A DNA stretch of 64,000 bases, from contig CAZFAO010000005.1 of assembly GCA_964516875.1 (NCBI GenBank), positions 3,588 through 67,587 of the forward strand, written 5' to 3'. Below the pieces are notes generated by a model. That model was not told the origin of the DNA and did no database searches. It saw nothing but the letters and a program-made list of their open reading frames with translations. Both the position numbers and the translations under genes were made by a program. Shown piece by piece: positions 39,864-55,957 of the stretch; the first letter of the stretch is position 1; each line of letters starts with the position of its first letter. This DNA is from an uncultured Burkholderiales bacterium (GTDB lineage: Bacteria; Actinomycetota; Acidimicrobiia; IMCC26256; JAGPDB01).

Positions 39864-42800
39864 ATGCCAATGCAACCAGTCTTTGACGGCACTTGGGTGA
39901 TCTATACACGCGAACCAACAAAACGCGCAATAGCTCTCACTCTTCTCGCAATTTTTGCTGCGGCGTCCTTCCTGATGCCTGCATTAAGTAAGGCATACGC
40001 TGCTGGCCCACCAACAGTTGCACTCGATTCAGTTCTCACACGAGTTTCCGACGGTAATGCTCCTTTTGCAGCGGTAGATCCGAATGCCAATAACGGATTG
40101 CTCGCAACACTTGATTCTGCTGCGTACACATTTGATATCAATGTCAACACGCTCGACGCACAACCTCATACGATTTCTAATGTAACGATTGTTGCAACAC
40201 TGAACTCAACATCACCACATGTTGCATGGATGAAAAACAGTATGCCCACTGCATGTACAACAGTTACATTGAGTTCCGACAGCAAAACTATAACGTGTGT
40301 TCTCGGTGGAACCGTGAGAACCGGTACTGCTTTGAAAATTGATGGGGCCTGGTTTGCTCGTTCAAATGTTCCGAACAACACAGACGTCACAACACAATTC
40401 ACAGTGAGTGGAACAATGGTTGCTGATTCGAGCACAACCACAAACCCTGCACCGCACACATCAAATGCAGATACAATCAAAGTTGTTTCGACAGGATCAA
40501 ACTACGAAGTCAGAAAATCACTTTCCGACCCACTCAACCCTTATACAATCGCTCGAGACAGCTCCGGAAACCCTATTGGTGTTGACGTGAAGTGGGGTGT
40601 CCAAGTTGAAGTGAAGAGTCCAACTCCCAACCAAACCAAGGGAGTCAACACTTCGAACTTAAGCACCTTAACGCTTGAGGATCTCATGAGTTCTGGACCA
40701 GCAGATCATCTTCCCATCAATAAAAATGCAACACTCGTGAATTGTTCACCGGTGAACGCAATCACGGATGGAATTGCTGACTCAAGTTCGAATGTTGTCG
40801 GAACGTACAGTGCTGTTCAAAATTCTGGAACATGGACGTGTAACCAATCCGCAGCCGGTGAACCTGTTGCAATTCAAGCTACAGGTATTCAATGGGCGCC
40901 CGAATGGTTCCCGAGCGGAAAATACTCGCACCGCGATGGGTATTGGTCTTTTAATACATCAAATAATGCGAACGAAATTTACAACAACCCAACAGGAAAA
41001 AATAATCAAGCTGTTGTCGCTACGCAAAACCTCACCATTCGCTACCCATGGGCTGATGTCCTTGCTTTTGATAACACTCCTGGCGATCGCAGTAAAGTTA
41101 GTGCCGGATACATTTCATGGTGTAACAACATTGGCAACATCGCTGTACCTGGTGGCCCTGTTGATGTCGATGATCCAACCAATAACGAAGCTTGTGTTGA
41201 GATATATAAAAATCCAGGTGTCGGAAACACAAGCAAACGCTTCGTGAAATACGGCGGCGACTGGACGTCATTCCCTGAACATGATCTTGGCCTCACCGAA
41301 GGAGCTCTCGGGACAGGTGACAGCGACAACTATGTCGTTCCTAACCAGAAGTTTGCTATTGCTATTTCGGCAGAAACAAGTAAGTTATCACCCGTTGGTT
41401 TGGCAGATTATGTATCGTGTGATTCAATCGATCAAACAAAATACAACCTTGTTGAACACAATGCTGCACCTGTTATGTCAGGCGCAACCGGTTCTGCTCA
41501 CCAATATTACAGTTGGCAAAAAAGCGGAACCTACGATTCTTCCTTCCCTGAAGTAACCGATGCCGATATTGTTGTGGAGTTTGCAAGCACAGGAACAACG
41601 TTTGCAACATCAACACAACAGCGCACCGTCAATTGCGACAGCACTTCGTTGGTATGGAAATCTGATCCAACACAACTTTCTGGCGGAATTGATTCTGCGA
41701 ACTTGATCCGCGTTCGCGTTCTCAAGCAGATCCCACCACGTATGCGAATCGATGCATACGTTTCCGTTCAAGCGCATGAAGGATTAGCTCACAACACTCG
41801 TATGTTTAACTTCATGCAGTACAAATCATCGAATTTCAGAAATGGTGCCTGGAACCAAGCATCTAACAGATGCCTTCCTGAAAACGATCCATGGAATACA
41901 TCATCGGGTCTTTTCAGTTGTGTTGTTCTGGCTGACCGCGCTTTTGTTATTCTTCCCCCTCCACTTCAGCAACTCTCCGACACACCCGAAAGACCGCTTC
42001 AAGACAAGACAGCAACATTGACTACTGGACAAGAGTGGACATACACGATGAAGTCAGGATTGACCTTTAATGCCGATGTTGCAATTAAAGGTGTTCATGT
42101 TTACAACGTGCTTCCTCCAGGACTCGACTTTGTTTCTTCGACCACCACGCCAACAGACATCATTTCCGATTGTGATGCAGCCGTCAATGTTGATTGTTTA
42201 ACAAACGATGCTGCGCGAACAAATATTGGATATCGAACAATCATTTGGGATCGCGGAGACTCCGACTTCGATTACACCGGAACACCACCGGCTCCTCAAT
42301 TGCAATCAACGATATTTGGTTCGTGGCAAGTCACCACACGCGTTGCAAAGTTCATCGCGAATGGTTCCAAACTTCAAACACGATCATGGACGCGTGCTGA
42401 TTCCGGAATTGAAAATATCGACCATCCGATCGTCTTCAGAGATAATGATGCTGCATGGCATAACGATCTCCTTTCTGGACCGATCGATGATGACTGGGTC
42501 CAAATAGCAACTGCTCAGGCTTTTGGTATTGAAAAGTACATCACCGAGGATCACATTCCGCTCAATGGAGTGGTTGAATACAACCTCGCTTTTGGAAACT
42601 TAACGGGTAACGCTAAGACCATGGACGCGATCGACATTTTGCCTTTCAACTCTGATAGTCGAAGCCCTGCAAGTGTTATCGATGGTGGATTTTCACTTAC
42701 GGGAATTATCGATCCACATGCTCTCATCAGCAAGGTGTACGTCACGTCTGCGGATCCGACGACACTCAACAGCGATCCTAATAATCCAAGCAACCCTGTA

Positions 42801-43280
42801 GTTGGCACTGGTATTTGGAAGTGTACATTTGAACAACTCGACACCTCCGGTTGTCCAGAAAGTTCTGACGTGACAGGTGTCCGATTGATTTCGAAACCAA
42901 TTAACGTTGGACAATTCGACATCGTTCAAATTCAGCTCACAACATTTGGTAACGACGGACACGAAGTATATACAAATAGATTCCAAGCACGCGCGAGCGG
43001 TTTGGCTCTGCCTGTTATTTCTTCCGACGTCAACGCGGTCACACCGACAACGACGACCACGACAACCACAACAACAACGACAACTCCGACGACGTCAACT
43101 CCGACGACGACTGTACCTGTTGAAGTTAAAGGTGAGACCTTAACAAACATCATCAGACCACTACCGTTTACGGGTGCGGCAAGTGTCGTGTTCTTAGTTC
43201 TGGTAGGACTCGGATTAATTGTTGGTGGATTCTTTGGAACAAAGGTAGTGAAAAAACGACGAAACTCTAAGTTCTTTTAA
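39864..43280 (+). CDS. Large LPxTG-anchored cell-wall surface protein with DUF11-like repeat and poly-Thr stalk
   Basis: 1138 aa. AAGGGAG SD, signal peptide ...ALSKAYAAG, and a DUF11-type block YNVLPPGLDFVSS. The TPTTTTTTTTTTTTTPTTSTPTTT stalk is followed by LPFTG, a hydrophobic helix, and KKRRNSKFF. Confidence 0.8.
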   Translation: MPMQPVFDGTWVIYTREPTKRAIALTLLAIFAAASFLMPALSKAYAAGPPTVALDSVLTRVSDGNAPFAAVDPNANNGLLATLDSAAYTFDINVNTLDAQPHTISNVTIVATLNSTSPHVAWMKNSMPTACTTVTLSSDSKTITCVLGGTVRTGTALKIDGAWFARSNVPNNTDVTTQFTVSGTMVADSSTTTNPAPHTSNADTIKVVSTGSNYEVRKSLSDPLNPYTIARDSSGNPIGVDVKWGVQVEVKSPTPNQTKGVNTSNLSTLTLEDLMSSGPADHLPINKNATLVNCSPVNAITDGIADSSSNVVGTYSAVQNSGTWTCNQSAAGEPVAIQATGIQWAPEWFPSGKYSHRDGYWSFNTSNNANEIYNNPTGKNNQAVVATQNLTIRYPWADVLAFDNTPGDRSKVSAGYISWCNNIGNIAVPGGPVDVDDPTNNEACVEIYKNPGVGNTSKRFVKYGGDWTSFPEHDLGLTEGALGTGDSDNYVVPNQKFAIAISAETSKLSPVGLADYVSCDSIDQTKYNLVEHNAAPVMSGATGSAHQYYSWQKSGTYDSSFPEVTDADIVVEFASTGTTFATSTQQRTVNCDSTSLVWKSDPTQLSGGIDSANLIRVRVLKQIPPRMRIDAYVSVQAHEGLAHNTRMFNFMQYKSSNFRNGAWNQASNRCLPENDPWNTSSGLFSCVVLADRAFVILPPPLQQLSDTPERPLQDKTATLTTGQEWTYTMKSGLTFNADVAIKGVHVYNVLPPGLDFVSSTTTPTDIISDCDAAVNVDCLTNDAARTNIGYRTIIWDRGDSDFDYTGTPPAPQLQSTIFGSWQVTTRVAKFIANGSKLQTRSWTRADSGIENIDHPIVFRDNDAAWHNDLLSGPIDDDWVQIATAQAFGIEKYITEDHIPLNGVVEYNLAFGNLTGNAKTMDAIDILPFNSDSRSPASVIDGGFSLTGIIDPHALISKVYVTSADPTTLNSDPNNPSNPVVGTGIWKCTFEQLDTSGCPESSDVTGVRLISKPINVGQFDIVQIQLTTFGNDGHEVYTNRFQARASGLALPVISSDVNAVTPTTTTTTTTTTTTTPTTSTPTTTVPVEVKGETLTNIIRPLPFTGAASVVFLVLVGLGLIVGGFFGTKVVKKRRNSKFF

Positions 43281-46874: not shown

Positions 46875-48908
46875 CTAAAGAGATCGCACCAATGGAGGCC
46901 TTGTATTTTCCATCGACACTTGTTGTTCTTGCACTTGCGGAGCGCATGGCTTATTAGCACCACACATGGCCCTGAACGGACAATCCCTATTACAAATGTT
47001 GACTATCTCAGTTGGCTCTTTGTCGTAGTCAGGACGCTCCCCATCTGTTGGCTCGTTGGGAAGATCATGATCGTCGCGTATGTCAAACAAGTCTGATTTT
47101 GTTTCCACCACTTCACGCGCATCGACTGCTCTGTCTTGAATAGTCTGAGGCTCGTGATGCATTTTTTGCGTGCCGGGTTGTTGATTGAATAGAGCAGCGT
47201 CTGTTTGTTTCTGCGGAAATGATTCCGTTTTAAAATTAGGAGGACCTTTCATGAATGCATCGGGTGCAAATTCCGTTGTTTGGTCCTGCCTTGTTGGAGC
47301 TGCCGGGGTAACGCCGGGAGCTTCACGTGTTCCAATTGCGACGAATACTTCATTATCTGCACGTGCAGGACTAGCAACAACAGATGGGGCAAGAGTTGGT
47401 GATGCTGGTGTTGCAGCAGGTGTGGCAGCTACTGCTGCCGCTGTTACCGTTGCTACTGTTGCAGCTGTTGCTGCGGCAAGAGAAGTTGCACTTGATGAAA
47501 CAGTGCGCGATGCATCTTGTTGAAGAACTTGCTGTTGCTGTGCATTGTGACGTGCCTGTTGAGCAAGTTGCGCTTGTTGCGCGACAACCTGTTGTTGCAG
47601 TTGCCTTTGGCGTTCTTGGTGTTGAGCGTGAATTTGCTGTTCTTGTTGCGCAATCTGTGCTCGACGTGCTTGCTCGCGAGCTTGGAGCTGTTGTGCTTGC
47701 TGTGCTTGTTGATCGTTCAGCGAGGAAGGTTGTTGAACCGGTGATGTCGCATTGTGTATAGGCTGATCCACATCCGTCACATCGATAAAACCGCGCTTTT
47801 TATCGGAGCCATCCGAAAGACCGCCAACTTCGACAAACCCTGCTTCGTCAAACAAACGCTCATCGGCAGTCACAACAAGTTCGCGCTCGTTGACTTCAAT
47901 AATCATGTCACGGACTTGGTCAACATCGAGTTCCGCAATCGAGGCGATAAGTTCCTTTTTTTCAAGATGAGACATGTCGGCAAAACGTTCGAGATCGATA
48001 TCGTTCACCATATCGATAATCACTTGCGCTTTTTCTTGCGTGATTTCACCCGCTTCAACAAGAAGAGCCATTCGCTCTTCGACGGATTTAATCAGAACAG
48101 CCATTTCATCGAAAGATACGAACCCTGCTTCATCGAACAATCTCTCATCGGCAGTCACAACAAGTTCACGTTCATTGATCTCAATAATAAGGTCACGCAC
48201 TTGGTCAACATCGAGGGTCGCTATTTGTGTAATTAATTCTTTCTGCTCTTGAAGAGTCATATCTGTAAATCGTCGAACATCAAGCGCGTTTGCCATTTCA
48301 ATAATAAGATCGGCTTTTTCTTGCGTGATTTCTCCCGCATCGACAAGAAGAGTCAATCGCTCTTCTACGGACTTAATCAGTGCTGCAATTTCATCGAACG
48401 ATACAAAGCCTTCTTCTCCAAGATTTCTCTTTGCAGCAGCATTGACAATGGATTCAATATCAAGTTCGGAAAAATACTGTTCGTACTCGGCGATGATTGC
48501 TTGAACTTGTTCTGTATCGAGTTCCTCTAGGTCGGCAGACATTCCAGGAAGCGGCGCTAAAACATTTTTGTCATCTTCGGCAGAAAAGTCGACGACTTCA
48601 CCTGTGTAGCGCGCATGCTGTTGTCGCATTTGAGCAAGTTTGTTAATGATCGCAAGAAGTTCTTTGTTTTTCTTTTGCTTAATTGCTTCACGACATTCTT
48701 CAATCATTAACTCGAGAGCAATAAGGCCATAAACATTTTTATACCAACGCAAGTATGACTCAAGGTTGATGAAAGAACGAACACCATTTTCTTGCAACTC
48801 GGAAAGTTCTTTAACGATCTCGTCGATTTTGTCATCGGCGACTTCTCGCGGTTGCGCAGCGTGATCCATCGTGAGATAGTTACGGCGTATGTTGCTTCCG
48901 TTGAACAT
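46875..48908 (-). CDS. Hypothetical protein with 2 x 95-aa tandem repeat, Gln-rich and Ala/Thr-rich regions, and C-terminal Cys cluster
   Basis: 677 aa with GAAAGGG upstream of the ATG. Repeats span aa 167-261 and 262-356. QAQQAQQLQAREQARRAQIAQQEQQ low-complexity region. C-terminal CNRDCPFRAMCGANKPC. Confidence 0.6.
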   Translation of the reverse strand: MFNGSNIRRNYLTMDHAAQPREVADDKIDEIVKELSELQENGVRSFINLESYLRWYKNVYGLIALELMIEECREAIKQKKNKELLAIINKLAQMRQQHARYTGEVVDFSAEDDKNVLAPLPGMSADLEELDTEQVQAIIAEYEQYFSELDIESIVNAAAKRNLGEEGFVSFDEIAALIKSVEERLTLLVDAGEITQEKADLIIEMANALDVRRFTDMTLQEQKELITQIATLDVDQVRDLIIEINERELVVTADERLFDEAGFVSFDEMAVLIKSVEERMALLVEAGEITQEKAQVIIDMVNDIDLERFADMSHLEKKELIASIAELDVDQVRDMIIEVNERELVVTADERLFDEAGFVEVGGLSDGSDKKRGFIDVTDVDQPIHNATSPVQQPSSLNDQQAQQAQQLQAREQARRAQIAQQEQQIHAQHQERQRQLQQQVVAQQAQLAQQARHNAQQQQVLQQDASRTVSSSATSLAAATAATVATVTAAAVAATPAATPASPTLAPSVVASPARADNEVFVAIGTREAPGVTPAAPTRQDQTTEFAPDAFMKGPPNFKTESFPQKQTDAALFNQQPGTQKMHHEPQTIQDRAVDAREVVETKSDLFDIRDDHDLPNEPTDGERPDYDKEPTEIVNICNRDCPFRAMCGANKPCAPQVQEQQVSMENTRPPLVRSL
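47841..48410 (-). repeat. Intragenic tandem duplication (2 x 285 nt)
   Basis: Units 48410-48126 and 48125-47841 encode GFVSFDE(I/M)A.LIKSVEER..LLV.AGEITQEKA..II.M.N..D..RF.DM....E.KELI..IA.LDVDQVRD.IIE.NERELVVTADERLFDEA. They are roughly three-quarters identical at the nucleotide level by eye. Confidence 0.8.
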
Positions 48909-49695: not shown

Positions 49696-52600
49696 ATGAG
49701 TACATCAAGCAAACCTGCACCAATAAATATTTCTGCGTTTCGCGGCTATGTAACAGCAGTAAAAATAATCTGTTGTCTCTTTCTCATTGCCTCTGGCGCT
49801 ATCGTCAGCGTGAAGCCAGCACAAGCTGCGGATCCCGCCACTGTTGTTATCAACGAATTGATGTATCACCCTGGTTCTGATGACGAAAACGATGAGTTCC
49901 TTGAGCTCCATAACTATGGGGAAGCTTCTGTGGATATGTCGGGCTGGTGTTTCACTAATGGAATCACTTTATGTTTTCTATCAGGCACGTCACTCGATCC
50001 AGACGAATACGCCCTTATTTCTCCCAACTACACCCAAACGATTAGCACATACTCTCACACCCCCATCGGTACGTACACGGGAAACCTTTCCAATAGTGGC
50101 GAACGAATCCGACTTGTCGACGAAGAATTAGTTACGGTTGATACAGTTTCATATAAAGATGCCAGCCCCTGGCCTTTGAGCGCCGACGGAGATGGTCCTT
50201 CTTTAGAATTACGAGATCCCCTCCTCGATCATGAGCTGGCATCCTCATGGGGGTCGAGTTTGTCAGATGGCGGGACACCTGAGGCAATAAACTCCATAAC
50301 AAATGCGAACATCCCCGTGGTAAGTAATGTATCGCAACCACAAGATGTGGAGAGCACTGATGATGTAACAATCACTGCGACAATTGAAAACTCTGTGACA
50401 ACAAATCTTGTGTACAAAATTGGATTTGATTCCGACATTACTGTTTCCATGTTCGACGATGGAACACACGACGATGGCGATGCCGATGACGGCGTTTTTG
50501 GGGCCATGATTCCTCAACAGGATTCCAATGCACTCGTTCGTTTTCGCGTTGAAGCAACTAACGGAAATGGAACTACATCGGGACCAAGTAGCGACGACAC
50601 GATTGATTACTACGGATATGTCGTCGATTCACAAACATTAAATGAAACCGTTCCTATCTTGCAGTGGTTCATCCCTGATAATACCTATGACGAATTGAAC
50701 GGCTTCGACGTAGAAGACGATACCTACGTCCCGTGTGTAATTGCTTATGGAAATATCGTTTTTGATAATTCTGAAATTCGACTTAAAGGTAACTACTCGC
50801 GAAGTTTTGACAAGAAACCTTATAAAGTGAAACTTCCTCAAGGTCACACAATCGACATTGATGGAATATCGAAATATCCCGTGAACGAATTCCACTTGAA
50901 TCCTGACTATGCAAACGGAAACTCGTACGTCTTGTCAACCTTGTCCTGGAAGATTTATGAATACGCAGGATTTCCGGTCCCCAACTTTGGAAAATTGCAG
51001 GTCAATAGAAACGGAGATTTTGAAGGAACATATCTTTTCTCTGACAAGTACGATAGCGAGTGGAAAGACGAAAATCCTACCTACAAGAATCAAGAACATT
51101 ACGACAACTGGTGGGAAAAGCAATCTCCAAAGGATGGAGATTTCTCTGCACGCAACAATTGGGAAACCAATGAATTAACTCTCACGGGCGATGAACTTCG
51201 TGATTATGTCCTCGATAACAATGACATCCCTAACTTGATCAATTACATGGCAGCAACGGCCGTTGCACGCCACCACGACTGGTCATCAAAACAAAACTTA
51301 CAAGAATTCCGAGACACCAATGGGACTGGCCGTTGGTCCATACAGCCATGGGATTTGGACCTCACGTTCACCAATATTGGTTTCGATGGGACGACAGAAG
51401 CTGAACCAGGAAGCGGGTACATGATTGATCCTCATGACTCTCCTGATTATCTTCCCGTCAATGACCGTTTCATGGTCAATGTCATTTATGACGATCCTGA
51501 ATTACGATCAATGTATCAACGCCGTGTTCGTACTCTTGTTGATGAACTCTACGTTACGGGACTTATTACACAGTGGGCTGATGACACTATTGAGCATTTG
51601 GAACCAGCCATGTTGTTAGATGAAGCCAAATGGGGTTCCGACCCTAACATGCAAGCGTATTTCGATGCTGTAATCGATTATATGTCCAATGATCTCGGGC
51701 TCGATATTAACGACCCAGAAGTAATCGCAATGTTTTATATGCAGGGGCTCGGTATTACCGATCTGAGTATCTTTCCTGACCCCATCACAGCGATTGAACC
51801 CTTGTCATTAAAAAATAGATTATTCCTTACATTCAATCTTCAAGTACCCAAGATGGCACAAGCCTTTACGAACCAATATGTCACCGAAGGATATCTTCCA
51901 ACAACTGAACCAGCAAACCCCGTCGTGAACATCAATGAAGTGATGTACAACCCCGTCGATGGTAATTCGCAAGAATATATTGAACTGTACAATCCAAATA
52001 ATTATGCCGTCGATTTGTCGCAATGGACTATCGAAGGTATTGATTTTGAATTACCCGGAGGAAGCACACTCCCAGCGCACGGGTACGGAATTATTGTGAA
52101 AAATGATGCAGCATCTCGTGCACACTACGGTGGTGGTGTTTTAGTGTTGGGTCAATACTCTGGAACATTGGCCGATGGTGGAGAGACAATTTCACTTGTT
52201 CGCGATAACGACACAGTATCGAGCACCATTGAATACTCGACCGATCAACCATGGCCGTCAGGCGCAAATGGGAATGGCAAAAGTCTCGCGCGTGACATAG
52301 ATTCTGGATGCTGGGGCGTCAGTTCGAACAACGATGGAACCCCTGGAGAAGAAAATTCTCTCGATGAAGAATGGACGTCAAGCAATGCTGGTGTTCTCTG
52401 TCCTTTTGTTGAAGAACCACCAACGACAACAACGGTTCCGCCACCAACGACAACTGCATCTCCCACAACTACGGTTCCAGATTCATCTGCTACGCCTACA
52501 ACTCAACCTGTGAAAGCAACGACGAAAAAAAGTTCTTCCGCTTCAACAAGTGAGTCGACAACTACTCCCACGACCACTCTCCCCACAACGAGCATTCCGA

Positions 52601-52812
52601 ACACATTGCCGACCATCGGAAAAGCAAGTTCTAACACTGACTCTGAGCAACCAGAAGTCGCTACCGAACAAGCAATCAAATCGGTAGACAGAGATTCGAG
52701 CTTACCGTTGGCCCTGCCGATTGCTGGAGTAGTTCTGCTGGGTAGCGCTGCGGGACTTTTCTTCTTCAGGCCACGTTGGTTAATGTCGCTCTTTGGAAAA
52801 AATGACGTATAA
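49696..52812 (+). CDS. CotH kinase-family protein flanked by two lamin-tail domains (LTD), with Thr-rich stalk and C-terminal TM anchor
   Basis: 1038 aa. LTD motifs VVINELMYHPG...EFLELHN and VNINEVMYNPV...EYIELYN. CotH block IRLKGNYSRSFDKKPYKVKL. PPTTTTVPPPTTTASPTTT stalk. C-terminal helix LALPIAGVVLLGSAAGLFFF. Confidence 0.8.
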   Translation: MSTSSKPAPINISAFRGYVTAVKIICCLFLIASGAIVSVKPAQAADPATVVINELMYHPGSDDENDEFLELHNYGEASVDMSGWCFTNGITLCFLSGTSLDPDEYALISPNYTQTISTYSHTPIGTYTGNLSNSGERIRLVDEELVTVDTVSYKDASPWPLSADGDGPSLELRDPLLDHELASSWGSSLSDGGTPEAINSITNANIPVVSNVSQPQDVESTDDVTITATIENSVTTNLVYKIGFDSDITVSMFDDGTHDDGDADDGVFGAMIPQQDSNALVRFRVEATNGNGTTSGPSSDDTIDYYGYVVDSQTLNETVPILQWFIPDNTYDELNGFDVEDDTYVPCVIAYGNIVFDNSEIRLKGNYSRSFDKKPYKVKLPQGHTIDIDGISKYPVNEFHLNPDYANGNSYVLSTLSWKIYEYAGFPVPNFGKLQVNRNGDFEGTYLFSDKYDSEWKDENPTYKNQEHYDNWWEKQSPKDGDFSARNNWETNELTLTGDELRDYVLDNNDIPNLINYMAATAVARHHDWSSKQNLQEFRDTNGTGRWSIQPWDLDLTFTNIGFDGTTEAEPGSGYMIDPHDSPDYLPVNDRFMVNVIYDDPELRSMYQRRVRTLVDELYVTGLITQWADDTIEHLEPAMLLDEAKWGSDPNMQAYFDAVIDYMSNDLGLDINDPEVIAMFYMQGLGITDLSIFPDPITAIEPLSLKNRLFLTFNLQVPKMAQAFTNQYVTEGYLPTTEPANPVVNINEVMYNPVDGNSQEYIELYNPNNYAVDLSQWTIEGIDFELPGGSTLPAHGYGIIVKNDAASRAHYGGGVLVLGQYSGTLADGGETISLVRDNDTVSSTIEYSTDQPWPSGANGNGKSLARDIDSGCWGVSSNNDGTPGEENSLDEEWTSSNAGVLCPFVEEPPTTTTVPPPTTTASPTTTVPDSSATPTTQPVKATTKKSSSASTSESTTTPTTTLPTTSIPNTLPTIGKASSNTDSEQPEVATEQAIKSVDRDSSLPLALPIAGVVLLGSAAGLFFFRPRWLMSLFGKNDV

Positions 52813-52886
52813 ATAAAAGACATCTTCACGCCAGACTTTCACTCTGCTGTCAGCATATCTCGCCCTGAGCGGAGAGTGTTTTCTCT

Positions 52887-52931
52887 TTGATTTTGTCGTA
52901 CCCCCTCGTTATAATACAAACATATGTTCGC
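52887..52931 (+). promoter_or_regulatory. Strong sigma-70-type promoter overlapped by a LexA (Cheo/SOS) box
   Basis: TTGATT (52887-52892), a 17-nt spacer, then TATAAT (52910-52915). CAAACATATGTTCG (52917-52930) is one mismatch from the palindrome CGAAC-N4-GTTCG. The ATG at 52924 sits inside the box, implying a leaderless or near-leaderless mRNA. Confidence 0.6.
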
Positions 52932-53256
52932 TCATGCAAATAACCGTGAAGTCAGGAGAAAATCTTTCACCAGAAAACTCTCGAGTGAACAAGATGTCGA
53001 ATATATCAATGAACGCGTGGAAGTGCTGTGCCTGTTTTCCGAGGGCGCCGGCGACCAGAGTAAATGTGTCCCGAGAAAAATGAAGTACAAAAATCGCATC
53101 ATTAGTTTTACGGAATTGGGTTTTCGTCATCCCACAAGTCAAGGGAATCGAATGATTCACGTCTTCGATACGACCGACGGTTCCGCAGAATACCGCATTG
53201 AACTCGACGCCGAACGTCTGACATGGATGCTGATCTGCATCATGCCGGTGGATTAG
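52924..53256 (+). CDS. Small SOS-regulated protein upstream of the Y-family polymerase (possible YolD-like accessory factor)
   Basis: 110-aa ORF. Its stop at 53254-53256 is 2 nt before the polymerase ATG at 53259, which has GGTGGA upstream, indicating tight coupling. No S24 peptidase motif is present. There is a weak YolD-like beta-rich pattern (IISFTELGF...MIHVFD...YRIELD). Confidence 0.45.
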   Translation: MFAHANNREVRRKSFTRKLSSEQDVEYINERVEVLCLFSEGAGDQSKCVPRKMKYKNRIISFTELGFRHPTSQGNRMIHVFDTTDGSAEYRIELDAERLTWMLICIMPVD

Positions 53257-53258
53257 TC

Positions 53259-54587
53259 ATGAGTACCACCATGGACCTCAACACTGCCGAGCCACATATT
53301 ATGCACATCGATCTCAACAGCTGCTTCGCTACTGTCGAGCAACAATCTCGCCCGAGTCTTCGCGGCAGGCCCATTGGCGTAACCAATCGCATCTCTCCGC
53401 ATTGTTGCATGATTGCACTGTCGTATGAAGCAAAGGCTGTCGGCGCAAAGGTAGGGATGCGTTACGACGAGGTCAAGGCCATGATTCCTCACCTCATCGT
53501 GTTAGAAACCGACCCTCCTAAATATCATCATGCCTACGAAAAGCTTGTCGACATTATGAAGAGTTACTCTCCTATCGTTGAAATGAAAAGTATCGACGAA
53601 GGTATCGTCGACTTTCATGGCACTGATCGAGCATTAAACGGCACGACTCTTTCAAAAATCGGTCACGAAATTAAACAGCGGCTGCGCGATGAACTGGGTT
53701 GTTGGATGAAATGCAACGTGGGCATTGCGCCTAACCGTTTTCTTGCCAAAGTTGCTGCTGGTTTTAATAAACCTGACGGACTCACTGTTATTAACCACAA
53801 AAACCTTCTCGATTATTACGCTCAACTCAAGCTGCAAGATCTGCCTGGTATCGCTCATCGTTTCGGTAAACGACTCAACGACCGGGGGATCATGACTCCG
53901 CTGGACTTTCTTCATGCATCGTATCCAACTCTACGAAAAAATGTTTTCGCCAGCATCGTCGGAGAGCATTGGTACAAACGCCTTCGTGGATACGAAGTAG
54001 ATGGCGTCGCCACCAATTTGGGAATTGTCGGAAAACAGTTTGCACTAGATGTCAAAACACAAGACGAAAATGAACTCAAAAAACGATTTGCATATCTCTG
54101 TTACTCAACAGGACGCAAACTCCGTTATAACAATGTGCGTGCACGAGGAATTTATGTATACCTCAACTTTCACCAACCCTACGAACAATCTGCTCGCAAT
54201 AAGTTTGCCGGAGGAGGATGGGGATCCACGGACGGTTCCCATAGTTGGTTCAAACGTCATCTGTTTAAAGAGCCCTTCTTCAGCGACCGTGCCATTTTGG
54301 AAAATGCCATGTTGCTTTTTGATCAACGTCCCAAAGACTCCACAATTTCTCTGATGAGTATTACGTGTTACCATCTCTCTGATAGTGAAGGTGAACCTAC
54401 ACAACTGGAACTGTTTCGCGATCTCGACAAAGAAGAGCACCTGACGGAAACGGTCGATGATATTAACGACACTTTTGGGATTCCCAGTGTCATGATGGCC
54501 AGTGCACTCGGGGCACATGGCATCGTCAAACAAAAAATCCCTTTTGGATCGACAAAGTATTTCCAATTGTTATGCAAGCGCGCGTAG
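53259..54587 (+). CDS. Y-family translesion DNA polymerase (UmuC/UvrX-like)
   Basis: HIDLNSCFATVEQ and SIDEGIVDF catalytic motifs, plus little-finger domain length. ATG 53259 is preferred over the track start at 53223. Confidence 0.88.
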   Translation: MSTTMDLNTAEPHIMHIDLNSCFATVEQQSRPSLRGRPIGVTNRISPHCCMIALSYEAKAVGAKVGMRYDEVKAMIPHLIVLETDPPKYHHAYEKLVDIMKSYSPIVEMKSIDEGIVDFHGTDRALNGTTLSKIGHEIKQRLRDELGCWMKCNVGIAPNRFLAKVAAGFNKPDGLTVINHKNLLDYYAQLKLQDLPGIAHRFGKRLNDRGIMTPLDFLHASYPTLRKNVFASIVGEHWYKRLRGYEVDGVATNLGIVGKQFALDVKTQDENELKKRFAYLCYSTGRKLRYNNVRARGIYVYLNFHQPYEQSARNKFAGGGWGSTDGSHSWFKRHLFKEPFFSDRAILENAMLLFDQRPKDSTISLMSITCYHLSDSEGEPTQLELFRDLDKEEHLTETVDDINDTFGIPSVMMASALGAHGIVKQKIPFGSTKYFQLLCKRA

Positions 54588-54596
54588 GCTTAATCG

Positions 54597-55232
54597 ATGC
54601 AAGTAGATATTTGGTCCGACATCGTATGCCCTTTTTGTTATTTGGGAAAACATCAATTCGAACAAGCGCTCGAACGCTTTGAACATAAAGATGAAGTAGA
54701 AGTGATCTATCACAGCTTCGAGCTCGACGCATCCGCAGCACTCGAAAATCCACTCGATGTCTACGACATGCTTTCACAAAAATATGGAATGACTCGCGAA
54801 CAAGCTATTGAATCGAACCAACGACTCGCAGAACAAGCACAAGAATTGGGTCTCGATTTCCATCAAGACAAAATAAAACTCACAAATTCTTTTGACGGAC
54901 ATCGTCTGATCCACTTTGCGGCGACAAAAGGAAAGCAAGCAGAGATGGTTGAAATACTTTACAGGGCATATTTCACCGATGGACTTCACATTGGACACCA
55001 TGACGTATTAACAAAGCTCGCAACCGAGGCTGGCCTGGACGAAAAAGAAGTTTCTGCCATGCTTGACAGCAACGACTTTGACGAAGCCGTGCGCACCGAT
55101 GAAGAAGGTGCCCAACAAATGGGGATCACGGGCGTTCCCTTTTTTGTGATTGATGTGCAATATGCAATTTCAGGTGCGCAAGGAACCGAGAGTTTCCTCT
55201 CCGCTCTTCACCAAGTGTGGGAAAATTCCTAA
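54597..55232 (+). CDS. DsbA-family thiol oxidoreductase (FrnE-like)
   Basis: 211 aa. SDIVCPFCYLGK active site and GVPFFVID C-terminal motif. Confidence 0.85.
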   Translation: MQVDIWSDIVCPFCYLGKHQFEQALERFEHKDEVEVIYHSFELDASAALENPLDVYDMLSQKYGMTREQAIESNQRLAEQAQELGLDFHQDKIKLTNSFDGHRLIHFAATKGKQAEMVEILYRAYFTDGLHIGHHDVLTKLATEAGLDEKEVSAMLDSNDFDEAVRTDEEGAQQMGITGVPFFVIDVQYAISGAQGTESFLSALHQVWENS

Positions 55233-55336
55233 TTCACTATTCGTCGATGGGCTTGAACGATGCGAAAAAGTTGTTAATGATGCGATGTGCACCGTTTGAC
55301 CTGAGCAATTGCAATTGTGCCTACTAGATTGGCTAA

Positions 55337-55957
55337 ATGGATTCGCCAGATAATGAGGACGAAGAAGAAGATTTCAGCGTTCAACTCACCGATTGGCTTA
55401 AAAGCCCAGGGGATAAAACTATTGGAGGCCTCGAAGATCTATTCGGCGATAAGAGCTTTGCTCTCATCTTTTTAGTGCTCATGGCCATTCCTGCACTCCC
55501 TCTTCCCACCGGAGGAGTATCTCACGTCTTTGAAGTCATCACGATGTTGCTCTCGCTTGAACTCATCGCTCAACGCCAAACAATCTGGCTTCCTCAAAAA
55601 TGGCGCGACAAAGAACTAGGAAAAATAACGCTGACAAAAACTCTTCCCTATCTGATTAAATGGATTCGAAGAGTGGAGCGATTTTCCGAACCACGAATGT
55701 CTAAATTCCTCGACTCAAGAATCGCTAGTACGCTTTTCGGCGTTTGCGTTTTTGTCTTTGCGCTCACAGCTCTTCTCGCTGTTCCGTTTTCTGGCCTGGA
55801 TACACTTCCCTCCATGGGAGTTCTCGGATTATCTCTTGGGTTTATTTTGGGAGATATTATCGTCGTTATCGCCGGTATTGTTGTTGGATCAGTGGGCATG
55901 GTTTTATCGATTGGTTTTGGCGCTGCGATCTATGAATTAGTGAAGAATATTTTTTAG
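55337..55957 (+). CDS. ExoD-family membrane protein
   Basis: 206 aa. FALIFLVLMAIPALPLPTGGVSHVFE...IAQRQTIWLPQKW matches the ExoD layout. Confidence 0.7.
   Translation: MDSPDNEDEEEDFSVQLTDWLKSPGDKTIGGLEDLFGDKSFALIFLVLMAIPALPLPTGGVSHVFEVITMLLSLELIAQRQTIWLPQKWRDKELGKITLTKTLPYLIKWIRRVERFSEPRMSKFLDSRIASTLFGVCVFVFALTALLAVPFSGLDTLPSMGVLGLSLGFILGDIIVVIAGIVVGSVGMVLSIGFGAAIYELVKNIF

Follow-up and report, generated by a model that had tools for sequence, protein, structure and literature searches.

An ImuB-C-like protein and a Y-family DNA polymerase encoded by a putative damage-inducible operon at an Acidimicrobiia-type locus

Which protein is encoded by the small gene directly upstream of a Y-family DNA polymerase, and what controls the pair? 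We address this question for positions 52887-54587 of a 64,000-nucleotide (nt) stretch of contig CAZFAO010000005.1 (the window), where a gene for a protein of 110 amino acids (aa) is followed by one for a polymerase. An earlier note on this DNA, made from its letters alone, had described the region as an SOS cassette and suggested that the small open reading frame (ORF) may specify an undescribed actinobacterial accessory subunit of a polymerase V-like mutasome. We find that the small ORF is a genuine gene, conserved and linked to the polymerase in different phyla, and that its product is probably a divergent and unannotated relative of the described ImuB-C domain, not a new type of subunit. 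Judging from the features listed below, the locus is likely a chromosomal, damage-inducible two-gene operon of the Acidimicrobiia type, encoding a putative translesion mutasome composed of the ImuB-C-like protein and the Y-family polymerase. Loci and proteins used for comparison are cited by L and P numbers.

Features of the locus (window coordinates, strand, description):
52887-52892, +, TTGATT, -35-like hexamer, followed by a 17-nt spacer before the -10 hexamer
52894-52899, +, TGTCGT, candidate PafBC -26 element, exactly 10 nt before TATAAT
52910-52915, +, TATAAT, -10 hexamer; TAnnnT stands at constant spacing from TGTC in orthologs
52917-52930, +, CAAACATATGTTCG, putative LexA (Cheo/mycobacterial-type) SOS box, spanning the predicted transcription start at 52922-52924 and the ATG
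52924-53256, +, small gene, encoding a 110-aa standalone ImuB-C-like (DUF6504-related) protein; ATG inside the box, stop TAG at 53254-53256
53247-53252, +, GGTGGA, Shine-Dalgarno-like sequence for the polymerase, within the end of the small gene and 6 nt before ATG 53259
53259-54587, +, Y-family DNA polymerase, 442 aa, with catalytic motifs and Pfam IMS and IMS_C
54402-54416, +, QLELF, predicted beta-clamp-binding pentapeptide, polymerase residues 382-386
54441-54500, +, LTETVDDINDTFGIPSVMMA, motif like the RecA N-terminus, polymerase residues 395-414
54525-54584, +, VKQKIPFGSTKYFQLLCKRA, conserved C-terminal tail, polymerase residues 423-442

The small ORF is a conserved gene linked to the polymerase

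The promoter TTGATT-17-TATAAT, the box, the ATG at 52924, the 110-aa ORF and the 2-nt gap between its stop and the polymerase ATG at 53259 all lie where the earlier note had placed them. The NCBI gene call for the contig gives an identical 110-aa product (P0001), and ATG 52924 is the only in-frame start ahead of the conserved core. For the polymerase, an alternative in-frame ATG at 53223 would give a protein of 454 aa. Nine close homologs of the small protein share 55-77% identity, and a profile search of 1.84 billion representatives returned 208 clusters (50% identity) at E <= 0.001, with family members among the matches listed being mostly 80-120 aa long. Family members are always named 'hypothetical protein' by their sources.

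Across seven Acidimicrobiia-type orthologs, substitutions at codon positions 1, 2 and 3 numbered 459, 291 and 1094, respectively, which is a coding signature for the small ORF. The earlier note had also considered that an opposite-strand ORF (52909-53160) might be the conserved one. This frame is open in the window alone and contains 1-7 stops in 6/6 orthologs; with stops in all six and a third-position bias that favours the forward frame, we rejected it as a real gene.

Linkage to the polymerase was scanned with one genome per species, which gave 69 loci encoding a relative of the small protein. An orthologous polymerase (47-72% identity) lies directly downstream on the same strand in 68/69 species genomes, in agreement with the association that the earlier note had assumed, and in 58 of those 68 it starts at most 60 nt from the small-gene stop. 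Even P0387, merely 24% identical to the window protein, retains the pairing. The hosts are mostly Candidatus Saccharibacteria, with few Acidimicrobiia or Chloroflexi, so the label 'actinobacterial' does not suit the family.

In a 'Candidatus Nomurabacteria' metagenome-assembled genome (MAG), the small protein and the polymerase form a single 506-aa ORF (L070:2998-4515). At the junction, ...WTLVAITS-CEPPLV-MHIDLN..., the end of the small domain is joined to the first catalytic motif, with the loss of ~3 residues of the small-protein C-terminus and ~9 of the polymerase N-terminus. Three long polymerases, P0167, P0168 and P0216, were considered as further fusions and rejected, since their N-termini or insertions are unrelated, of low complexity, and contain no small domain.

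The small gene is also found without an intact polymerase. At L058:2983-3270, the small gene and an upstream RNA element (described below) are kept, and the gene that follows downstream, an ORF of 296 aa on the opposite strand, is unrelated. In the P0076 lineage (L083-L086) of widespread freshwater Saccharibacteria, an intact 86-aa small gene is followed by polymerase remnants of 73 and 74 aa. Because the small gene persists in these cases, its product may also serve a function in the absence of the polymerase.

The small protein is probably a divergent relative of ImuB-C

When the 69 diverse members were compared with Pfam, the family that drew the most of them was DUF6504 (PF20114), matched by 11/69 with a best E of 1.5e-4. 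The ImuB-C protein of Deinococcus deserti (PMC8072749) carries the RefSeq name 'DUF6504 family protein' and has LexA, a Y-family polymerase and DnaE as neighbours. A homolog from Deinococcus sp. D7000 scores 31.6 bits on PF20114 (cut-off 24.2 bits), and the C-terminus of Sinorhizobium meliloti ImuB, encoded on pSymA beside imuA and dnaE2, scores 17.2 bits. Together, these matches identify DUF6504 with the ImuB-C domain of Aravind, Anand & Iyer (PMC3765255).

Using hhalign, the family alignment was compared with seven ImuB-C sequences, giving a match over 78 columns, end to end, with a probability of 73% and an E of 3.1e-5. It begins in the first strand and ends at the C-terminal W-x-L, its register being the one that the conserved Pro and Trp would predict, and pairs the family's Trp and its P..(W/Y).G(R/Q).Y segment with their ImuB-C counterparts. 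The described hallmarks of ImuB-C are a length of ~80 aa, a predominance of beta-strand, a highly conserved C-terminal Trp, conserved basic residues, and no catalytic pattern (PMC3765255). In the family studied here, a conserved beta core of ~85 aa spans residues ~24-110, while the N-terminal ~23 aa of the window protein are lineage-specific and predicted to be disordered. W101 is kept in at least 90% of the 69 diverse members, and R58, R68 and R76 are invariant among close homologs.

An AlphaFold2 (AF2) model of the small protein has 7-8 strands and no helix of four or more residues, and the predicted local distance difference test (pLDDT) of its core mostly reaches the 90s with a deeper alignment. 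A Foldseek search against the Protein Data Bank (PDB) gave no match at E <= 0.001 (best E 0.12, TM 0.26, for a model with a mean pLDDT of only 72.7). The missing PDB match would fit a novel fold, and the all-beta model agrees with the description of ImuB-C as a beta-barrel whose fold is new and differs from the SH3 barrel of UmuD' and YqjX (PMC12926913). A sequence-profile search for a PDB fold returned only an alpha-glucosidase match (E 0.17), which we dismissed as spurious.

From these sequence comparisons, the family very probably belongs to the ImuB-C superfamily. Several results count against this assignment. The window protein itself has no Pfam or NCBIfam match at E <= 1, and all member matches to PF20114 fall under its 24.2-bit gathering score. 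The hhalign probability is 73%, not above 95%, and was obtained with a thin template of seven sequences. The family hidden Markov model scores -1.6 bits on the S. meliloti ImuB C-terminus, a value that 222/1000 shuffles equal or exceed, and hhalign of the family with that single C-terminus found no match. The homology to ImuB-C therefore sits at the edge of detection.

The relationship changes two proposals of the earlier note. The subunit is not 'undescribed', because standalone ImuB-C with an active Y-family polymerase (PolY), often under LexA, has already been published (PMC3765255, PMC6511836, PMC12926913). The cassette had also been presented as distinct from imuA'-imuB-dnaE2, a separation undercut by the homology of the small protein to ImuB-C.

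A further relative may be encoded in Thermus brockianus pTB1, where a 443-aa 'hypothetical protein' (L095:867-2198) lies between an S24 peptidase gene and dnaE. Judging from its C-terminus, which can be aligned with standalone ImuB-C proteins, this is probably an ImuB-like fusion that has not been annotated.

The polymerase has the C-terminal architecture of multisubunit Y-family enzymes

The polymerase matches Pfam IMS (E 2.7e-32, profile positions 1-147 of 148) and IMS_C (E 3.7e-07), and with IDLNSCFATVEQ, which fits DxNSxFAxxE, and the catalytic motifs HIDLNSCFATVEQ and SIDEG it is apparently catalytically intact. From the DxNSxFAxxE block, the earlier note had argued for a UmuC/UvrX-type rather than a DinB-type enzyme. 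The block is present, but the argument built on it is unsupported, because Pol IV models match best and the UmuC model worst. All ten NCBIfam matches fall under their own cut-offs; the top one is the Pol IV model PRK01810 (184.5 bits against a cut-off of 399), and the UmuC model PRK03609 is the weakest (82 bits against a cut-off of 431). The polymerase falls outside the curated equivalogs and forms a subfamily of its own.

Conservation of further motifs was counted across 65 orthologs. The predicted clamp-binding pentapeptide, Q-[LIM]-[SDE]-[LMI]-[FL], has Q in 65/65, L, I or M at the next position in 54/65, L, M or I at residue 385 in 65/65, and F in 53 or L in 11 of 65 at residue 386. A helix-like motif follows, L-T-x-A-[VIM]-D-E-I-N-[DE]-x-[YF]-G, in which D400, N403 and G407 are invariant (65/65) and L395, T396, A398, I402 and Y/F406 are strongly conserved. 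By eye, this motif is like the N-terminus of RecA (…AL.QIEKQFGKGSIM…; ALxxALxQIEKQFGKGSIM) and like the RecA N-terminal (RecA-NT) motif of PMC6511836. In the tail, [VI]-K-Q-K-I-P-F-G-[GS]-T-x-Y-F-x-L-L, residues Q425, K426, P428, F429, G430, T432 and Y434 are invariant (65/65). The Pfam scan found no DUF4113 match in the polymerase. Compared at the sequence level, this C-terminal architecture is that of the multisubunit Y-polymerases of Timinskas & Venclovas (PMC6511836). The tails of UmuC and YqjW are known or proposed docking sites for their small subunits (PMC6511836), and by analogy the tail is a candidate docking site for the small protein.

This layout recalls Escherichia coli umuDC (Pol V) and Bacillus subtilis yqjX-yqjW and yolD-uvrX, in which a small accessory gene likewise lies upstream of a coupled Y-family polymerase under SOS regulation, and the polymerase carries a clamp motif, a RecA-NT motif and a conserved C-terminal tail. 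The small protein could accordingly be an accessory subunit of UmuD/YolD type, in a Pol V-like UmuD'2C or YqjW-YqjX arrangement, and the disordered N-terminal extension of the window copy can be imagined as an 'arm' like that of UmuD' or YqjX. We consider this explanation highly improbable. The YolD family PF08863 gave no match in the window protein at E <= 1 and none in the 69 members at E <= 0.1, S24 peptidase models gave none at the same thresholds, and no Pfam or NCBIfam model matched the window protein at E <= 1, which rules out YolD and S24/UmuD at the profile level and agrees with the earlier note's view that the ORF is neither. Neither a conserved Ser-Lys pair among the invariant columns nor a self-cleavage motif is present, and an N-terminal arm is missing from most members (86-95 aa). 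The family links instead to DUF6504/ImuB-C, whose barrel bears no similarity to the SH3 barrel that UmuD' and YqjX have (PMC12926913); the accessory protein is apparently of another family and fold than S24 or YolD/SH3-like proteins. By sequence, the polymerase does not resemble UmuC; its small neighbour is probably a genuine partner of accessory type, with putative SOS-type control.

A second alternative follows the proposal of Aravind et al. for ImuB-C, in which the small protein would merely be a co-expressed damage sensor, DNA-binding recruiter or regulator, and not a stoichiometric subunit. ImuB-C has been proposed as a damaged-DNA-recognising domain and also occurs beside Ku/ligase, SplB photolyase and SRAP genes (PMC3765255), and the survival of the small gene at L058 and in the P0076 lineage would fit such a role. 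The case for a physical partnership has two limits: the fusion was found in one MAG only (L070), its protein being absent from the protein collection, and AF2 on the concatenated pair with an unpaired alignment gave a predicted template modelling score of 0.46, with a pLDDT of ~30 at the polymerase N-terminus and a confident small domain, which provides no interface evidence. Nonetheless, adjacency is near-universal and tight, with stops and starts that overlap or are coupled, and nature has fused the two proteins at least in L070. AlphaFold models of the mycobacterial mutasome show ImuB-C in contact with DnaE2 and ImuA (PMC12926913), and the invariant C-terminal tail of the polymerase has no other assigned partner. 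A role confined to sensing, recruitment or regulation is therefore unlikely in our estimation, and we favour the small protein as a partner of the polymerase.

A probable PafBC-type promoter with a putative LexA box appended

TTGATT-17-TATAAT agrees with the sigma-70 consensus at 10/12 positions and is the top promoter-like site within 52000-55500, which bears out the earlier note's choice of it as the best promoter match. One nt after the -10 hexamer lies CAAACATATGTTCG, a putative LexA box that is one mismatch from CGAAC-N4-GTTCG (9/10 core positions); the LexA consensus of Mycobacterium tuberculosis is TCGAAC(N4)GTTCGA (PMC3381160). The LexA-type box seen by the earlier note proved to be conserved: in the Acidimicrobiia loci it is written as CGAACATATGTTCG, and CGAACATATGT(T/A)(T/C)G occurs 1 nt after the -10 in five lineages (window, L004, L017, L001/L016 and L015). 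The promoter-operator module lies ahead of the small gene in three lineages.

The promoter appears better read as a PafBC-type -26/-10 promoter to which a LexA box has been appended, a possibility that the earlier note overlooked. The PafBC consensus is tGTCgg-N10-tA(N3)T, with a -26 element read by PafBC, which adapts sigma-A; in PafBC-dependent (RecA-NDp) promoters the GTC triplet is strictly conserved at -26 and there is no -35 (PMC8635444). We found TGTC-N12-TANNNT in all seven Acidimicrobiia-type lineages with intact upstream sequence (window, L001/L016 (twice), L004, L014, L015, L017 and L047), while the remaining loci scanned gave two matches only. Because the remainder of the promoter spacer has diverged between lineages, the PafBC motif stands out as a phylogenetic footprint. 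Most of these promoters retain a -35-like TTGnnT, which is TTGATT in the window and is found at the equivalent position in L001, L004 and L014. Its retention makes basal sigma-A activity possible, and this activity may be repressed by LexA and boosted by PafBC. We infer that the operon is under dual PafBC and LexA control. Dual control of recA, dnaE2 and imuA'/imuB by LexA and PafBC, from separate sites, is documented in mycobacteria (PMC8682763).

The box also bears on translation. Since its spacer is always ATAT, an ATG is always embedded. In the window and L017 this ATG shares the frame of the small ORF, and in L001 and L015 that of the polymerase (all begin MFA...). In L004 it is out of frame, and a leader with GAGGTGA is found there instead. 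No Shine-Dalgarno sequence precedes ATG 52924, so the small gene is probably read from a leaderless or near-leaderless mRNA, which for the window would be the only route to the full protein. Given the 2-nt gap, we infer that the polymerase is translationally coupled to the small gene.

Several observations weigh against damage control from this promoter. In the window as a whole, each of the short motifs is no more frequent than chance predicts, be it the promoter-like sites (3 observed, 4.4 expected), the PafBC-like patterns (4 observed, 4.2 expected) or the LexA-like boxes with at most one mismatch (7 observed, 3.4 expected, a count reached in 5/100 shuffles); the weight of these short motifs therefore comes only from their conservation across orthologous loci. 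In two lineages the operator stands between both genes, in front of the polymerase and not of the small gene, which there has its own PafBC-type promoter without a box. The L009 pair has no adjacent box or PafBC motif. Finally, lexA, pafB and pafC are not among the 18 window ORFs scanned against Pfam, most window ORFs lying outside that scan. The 18 scanned ORFs include mfd, prs, ppx, a ROK-family protein and a CotH/lamin-tail surface protein, and dnaE2 is likewise not among them.

The chance frequency of both patterns and the absence of lexA and pafBC from the ORFs scanned would suit a third alternative, in which the LexA-like box, the PafBC-like element or both arose by chance and an ordinary sigma-A promoter, TTGATT-17-TATAAT, drives the operon. 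It could further appeal to the -35-like TTGnnT, which described PafBC promoters do not have, to the degenerate half-site in every copy of the box, and to the missing box in L009 and L014. We judge it quite unlikely. TGTCGTA keeps a constant spacing to the -10 in seven lineages despite the diverged spacer and is essentially absent from non-actinobacterial loci. The box with its ATAT spacer lies 1 nt past the -10 in five lineages, also in those whose module now precedes the polymerase gene, and the box at 52917 is the sole one of the seven LexA-like matches in the window that falls outside a long ORF in the ORF list. Dual PafBC and LexA control remains our preferred reading.

Two neighbouring features deserve mention. 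A weak terminator-like hairpin (52870-52889) reaches into the first letters of the -35-like hexamer in the window promoter. At L009:4762-5994 (also in L010-L012), 6 nt separate the small gene from the end of an upstream DUF222/HNH endonuclease gene, inside which lies the only box-like match of the L009 lineage (2 mismatches).

A structured RNA precedes the operon in Saccharibacteria and Chloroflexi

A conserved element of ~75 nt was found on the same strand upstream of the small gene in 33 fetched loci, almost all from Saccharibacteria or Chloroflexi, and directly ahead of the small gene in most of them. Examples, all outside the window, are as follows:
L059:2880-2954, RNA element
L068:730-802, RNA element
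L027:739-810, RNA element
L036:2907-2983, RNA element

The element comprises stacked stems P1 (AGYU/AGCU) and P2 (CCUG/CAGG), and a variable hairpin whose (G)AACGG loop is conserved. The element's 3' AAAUCCGUU is complementary to this loop, and pairing between the two could form a possible pseudoknot. The structure is backed by covariation. In the proposed stems, 90.4% of cells are paired compared to 78.5% in shuffles (0/500 reach the observed value), eleven pairs change on both sides where 5.0 are expected, and slid controls are paired in at most 48.5%. A covariance model (R1) run over 500 kb found 33 copies, every one of them upstream of the small gene; the window and the Acidimicrobiia loci gave none. 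The element has no match in Rfam 15 at gathering scores or at E <= 10, and is a candidate for a new cis-regulatory RNA that may act on error-prone repair. A second conserved piece, AGGCAAUCAnACUUCGGUCCCUGUGCGCC, lies ~25 nt upstream of it (for example, alignment A5 columns 35-75) and holds a hairpin with a UUCG loop and covarying closing pairs, which are AC/GU in some loci and CC/GG in other ones, so that the RNA may extend to ~170 nt.

A proposed mechanism and its relation to known mutasomes

With a putative LexA box over the transcription start and start codon, LexA would hold the operon off: in undamaged cells, repressor bound at 52917-52930 would block initiation. After damage, RecA filaments would trigger cleavage of LexA, and PafBC bound to single-stranded DNA would recruit RNA polymerase through the -26 element. 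The transcript would give the ImuB-C-like protein and then, through coupling, the polymerase. QLELF would bring the polymerase to stalled forks by way of the beta clamp, and the RecA-NT-like motif would dock, position or activate it on RecA, as in UmuC. The ImuB-C-like protein would be an obligate partner of the polymerase, serving as adaptor or regulator by analogy with ImuB-C in the ImuA'-ImuB-DnaE2 mutasome. Its barrel might bind the invariant tail and/or RecA, or might bridge to a replicative C-family polymerase; in AlphaFold models of the mycobacterial mutasome, ImuB-C contacts the PHP domain of DnaE2 (PMC12926913).

Operons of ImuB-C and active PolY have been described before. Standalone ImuB-C was reported as 'most frequently combined with ... 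Pol IV (DinB)' in operons that 'often code for LexA' (Aravind et al. 2013, PMC3765255), Geobacter's operon lexA-imuB-C-polY is a damage-induced example (Timinskas & Venclovas 2019, PMC6511836), and a 2026 survey counts PolY with ImuB-C among its complexes (PMC12926913). The present locus is thus a sequence-divergent case of that kind. It resembles the Geobacter sulfurreducens operon lexA-imuB-C(GSU0042)-polY ('GeoPolY-like'), compared here by description only, in having a gene for an all-beta ImuB-C-type protein of ~80-110 aa directly upstream of an apparently active PolY, a RecA-NT-like motif in the PolY, putative SOS/LexA-type control, and no imuA or dnaE2 in the operon. It differs in that lexA lies outside the operon, a candidate PafBC-type element is added, and the subfamily is too divergent for the Pfam DUF6504 and NCBIfam models.

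The mycobacterial ImuA'-ImuB-DnaE2 mutasome shares the order of a clamp motif followed by a RecA-NT-like motif, which is found in ImuB there and in the polymerase here, and published data show imuA'/imuB and dnaE2 to be regulated by both LexA and PafBC (PMC8682763). In contrast, the Y-family protein here keeps its catalytic residues, the ImuB-C domain is a separate polypeptide, and neither imuA' nor dnaE2 is adjacent. The arrangement of the regulatory sites also differs, as LexA and PafBC sites occupy separate promoters in mycobacteria (166 nt apart at imuA') and would share one -10 here. In D. deserti, a standalone 80-aa ImuB-C likewise lies beside a Y-family gene under LexA/RecA control (PMC8072749), but its ImuY is predicted to be inactive with DnaE2 as the catalytic polymerase, the Y gene precedes imuB-C, and its ImuB-C scores above the Pfam cut-off where the present family falls below.

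The novelty lies in a subfamily that Pfam and NCBIfam do not recognise and that occurs predominantly in Candidatus Saccharibacteria, in a putative PafBC/LexA fusion promoter of Acidimicrobiia, and in one natural fusion of the two proteins. The phyletic range seen here (Candidatus Saccharibacteria, Acidimicrobiia and Chloroflexi) is not mentioned in the available sections of PMC3765255, PMC6511836 or PMC12926913, the words 'Saccharibacteria' and 'Patescibacteria' are absent from the main text of PMC12926913, and the term 'DUF6504' occurs in no paper of the literature searched. These findings offer a testable role and a name for a 'hypothetical' family of 86-116 aa (~200 clusters at 50% identity) that Pfam and NCBIfam models miss, and extend the putative ImuB-C/PolY mutasome type to Acidimicrobiia and to Candidatus Saccharibacteria of the candidate phyla radiation. 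ImuB-C is the least understood module of bacterial mutasomes, and its occurrence as a separate small protein with an active polymerase, fused to it in one MAG, gives biochemistry a handle. With PafBC -26/-10 elements and a LexA box at a single transcription start, the compact promoter could serve as a minimal model of the integration of the two actinobacterial damage pathways at a mutagenic locus.

More tentatively, and with the odds against the full proposal, PolY, the ImuB-C-like protein, RecA and the beta clamp could constitute a self-contained, DnaE2-independent mutasome. For the genome-reduced Candidatus Saccharibacteria this would be the chief or sole inducible translesion system, and Acidimicrobiia and Chloroflexi would share it, perhaps through horizontal transfer. 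Each host would have wired it to its own damage sensor, through the fused PafBC/LexA promoter in Acidimicrobiia and through the new pseudoknotted leader RNA, riboswitch-like or protein-binding, in Saccharibacteria and Chloroflexi.

Genomic surroundings of the operon

The ORF upstream of the operon (49696-52812, 1038 aa) encodes a CotH kinase domain, two lamin-tail domains, a Thr/Pro-rich stretch and a hydrophobic end, and looks like a surface protein. Two other large window ORFs, at 39864-43280 (1138 aa) and 46875-48908 (677 aa), have no Pfam family at E <= 1e-5. Downstream, a gene for a DsbA-like thioredoxin-fold protein (54597-55232) begins 9 nt past the polymerase stop and could be co-transcribed with the operon; in L004, a DsbA-like gene sits just upstream of the small gene instead. 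The flanks of the window share a DsbA-like gene, ExoD, a GHMP kinase and an rRNA adenine dimethylase with L001, L009 or L004, and the context of the locus is ordinary chromosomal.

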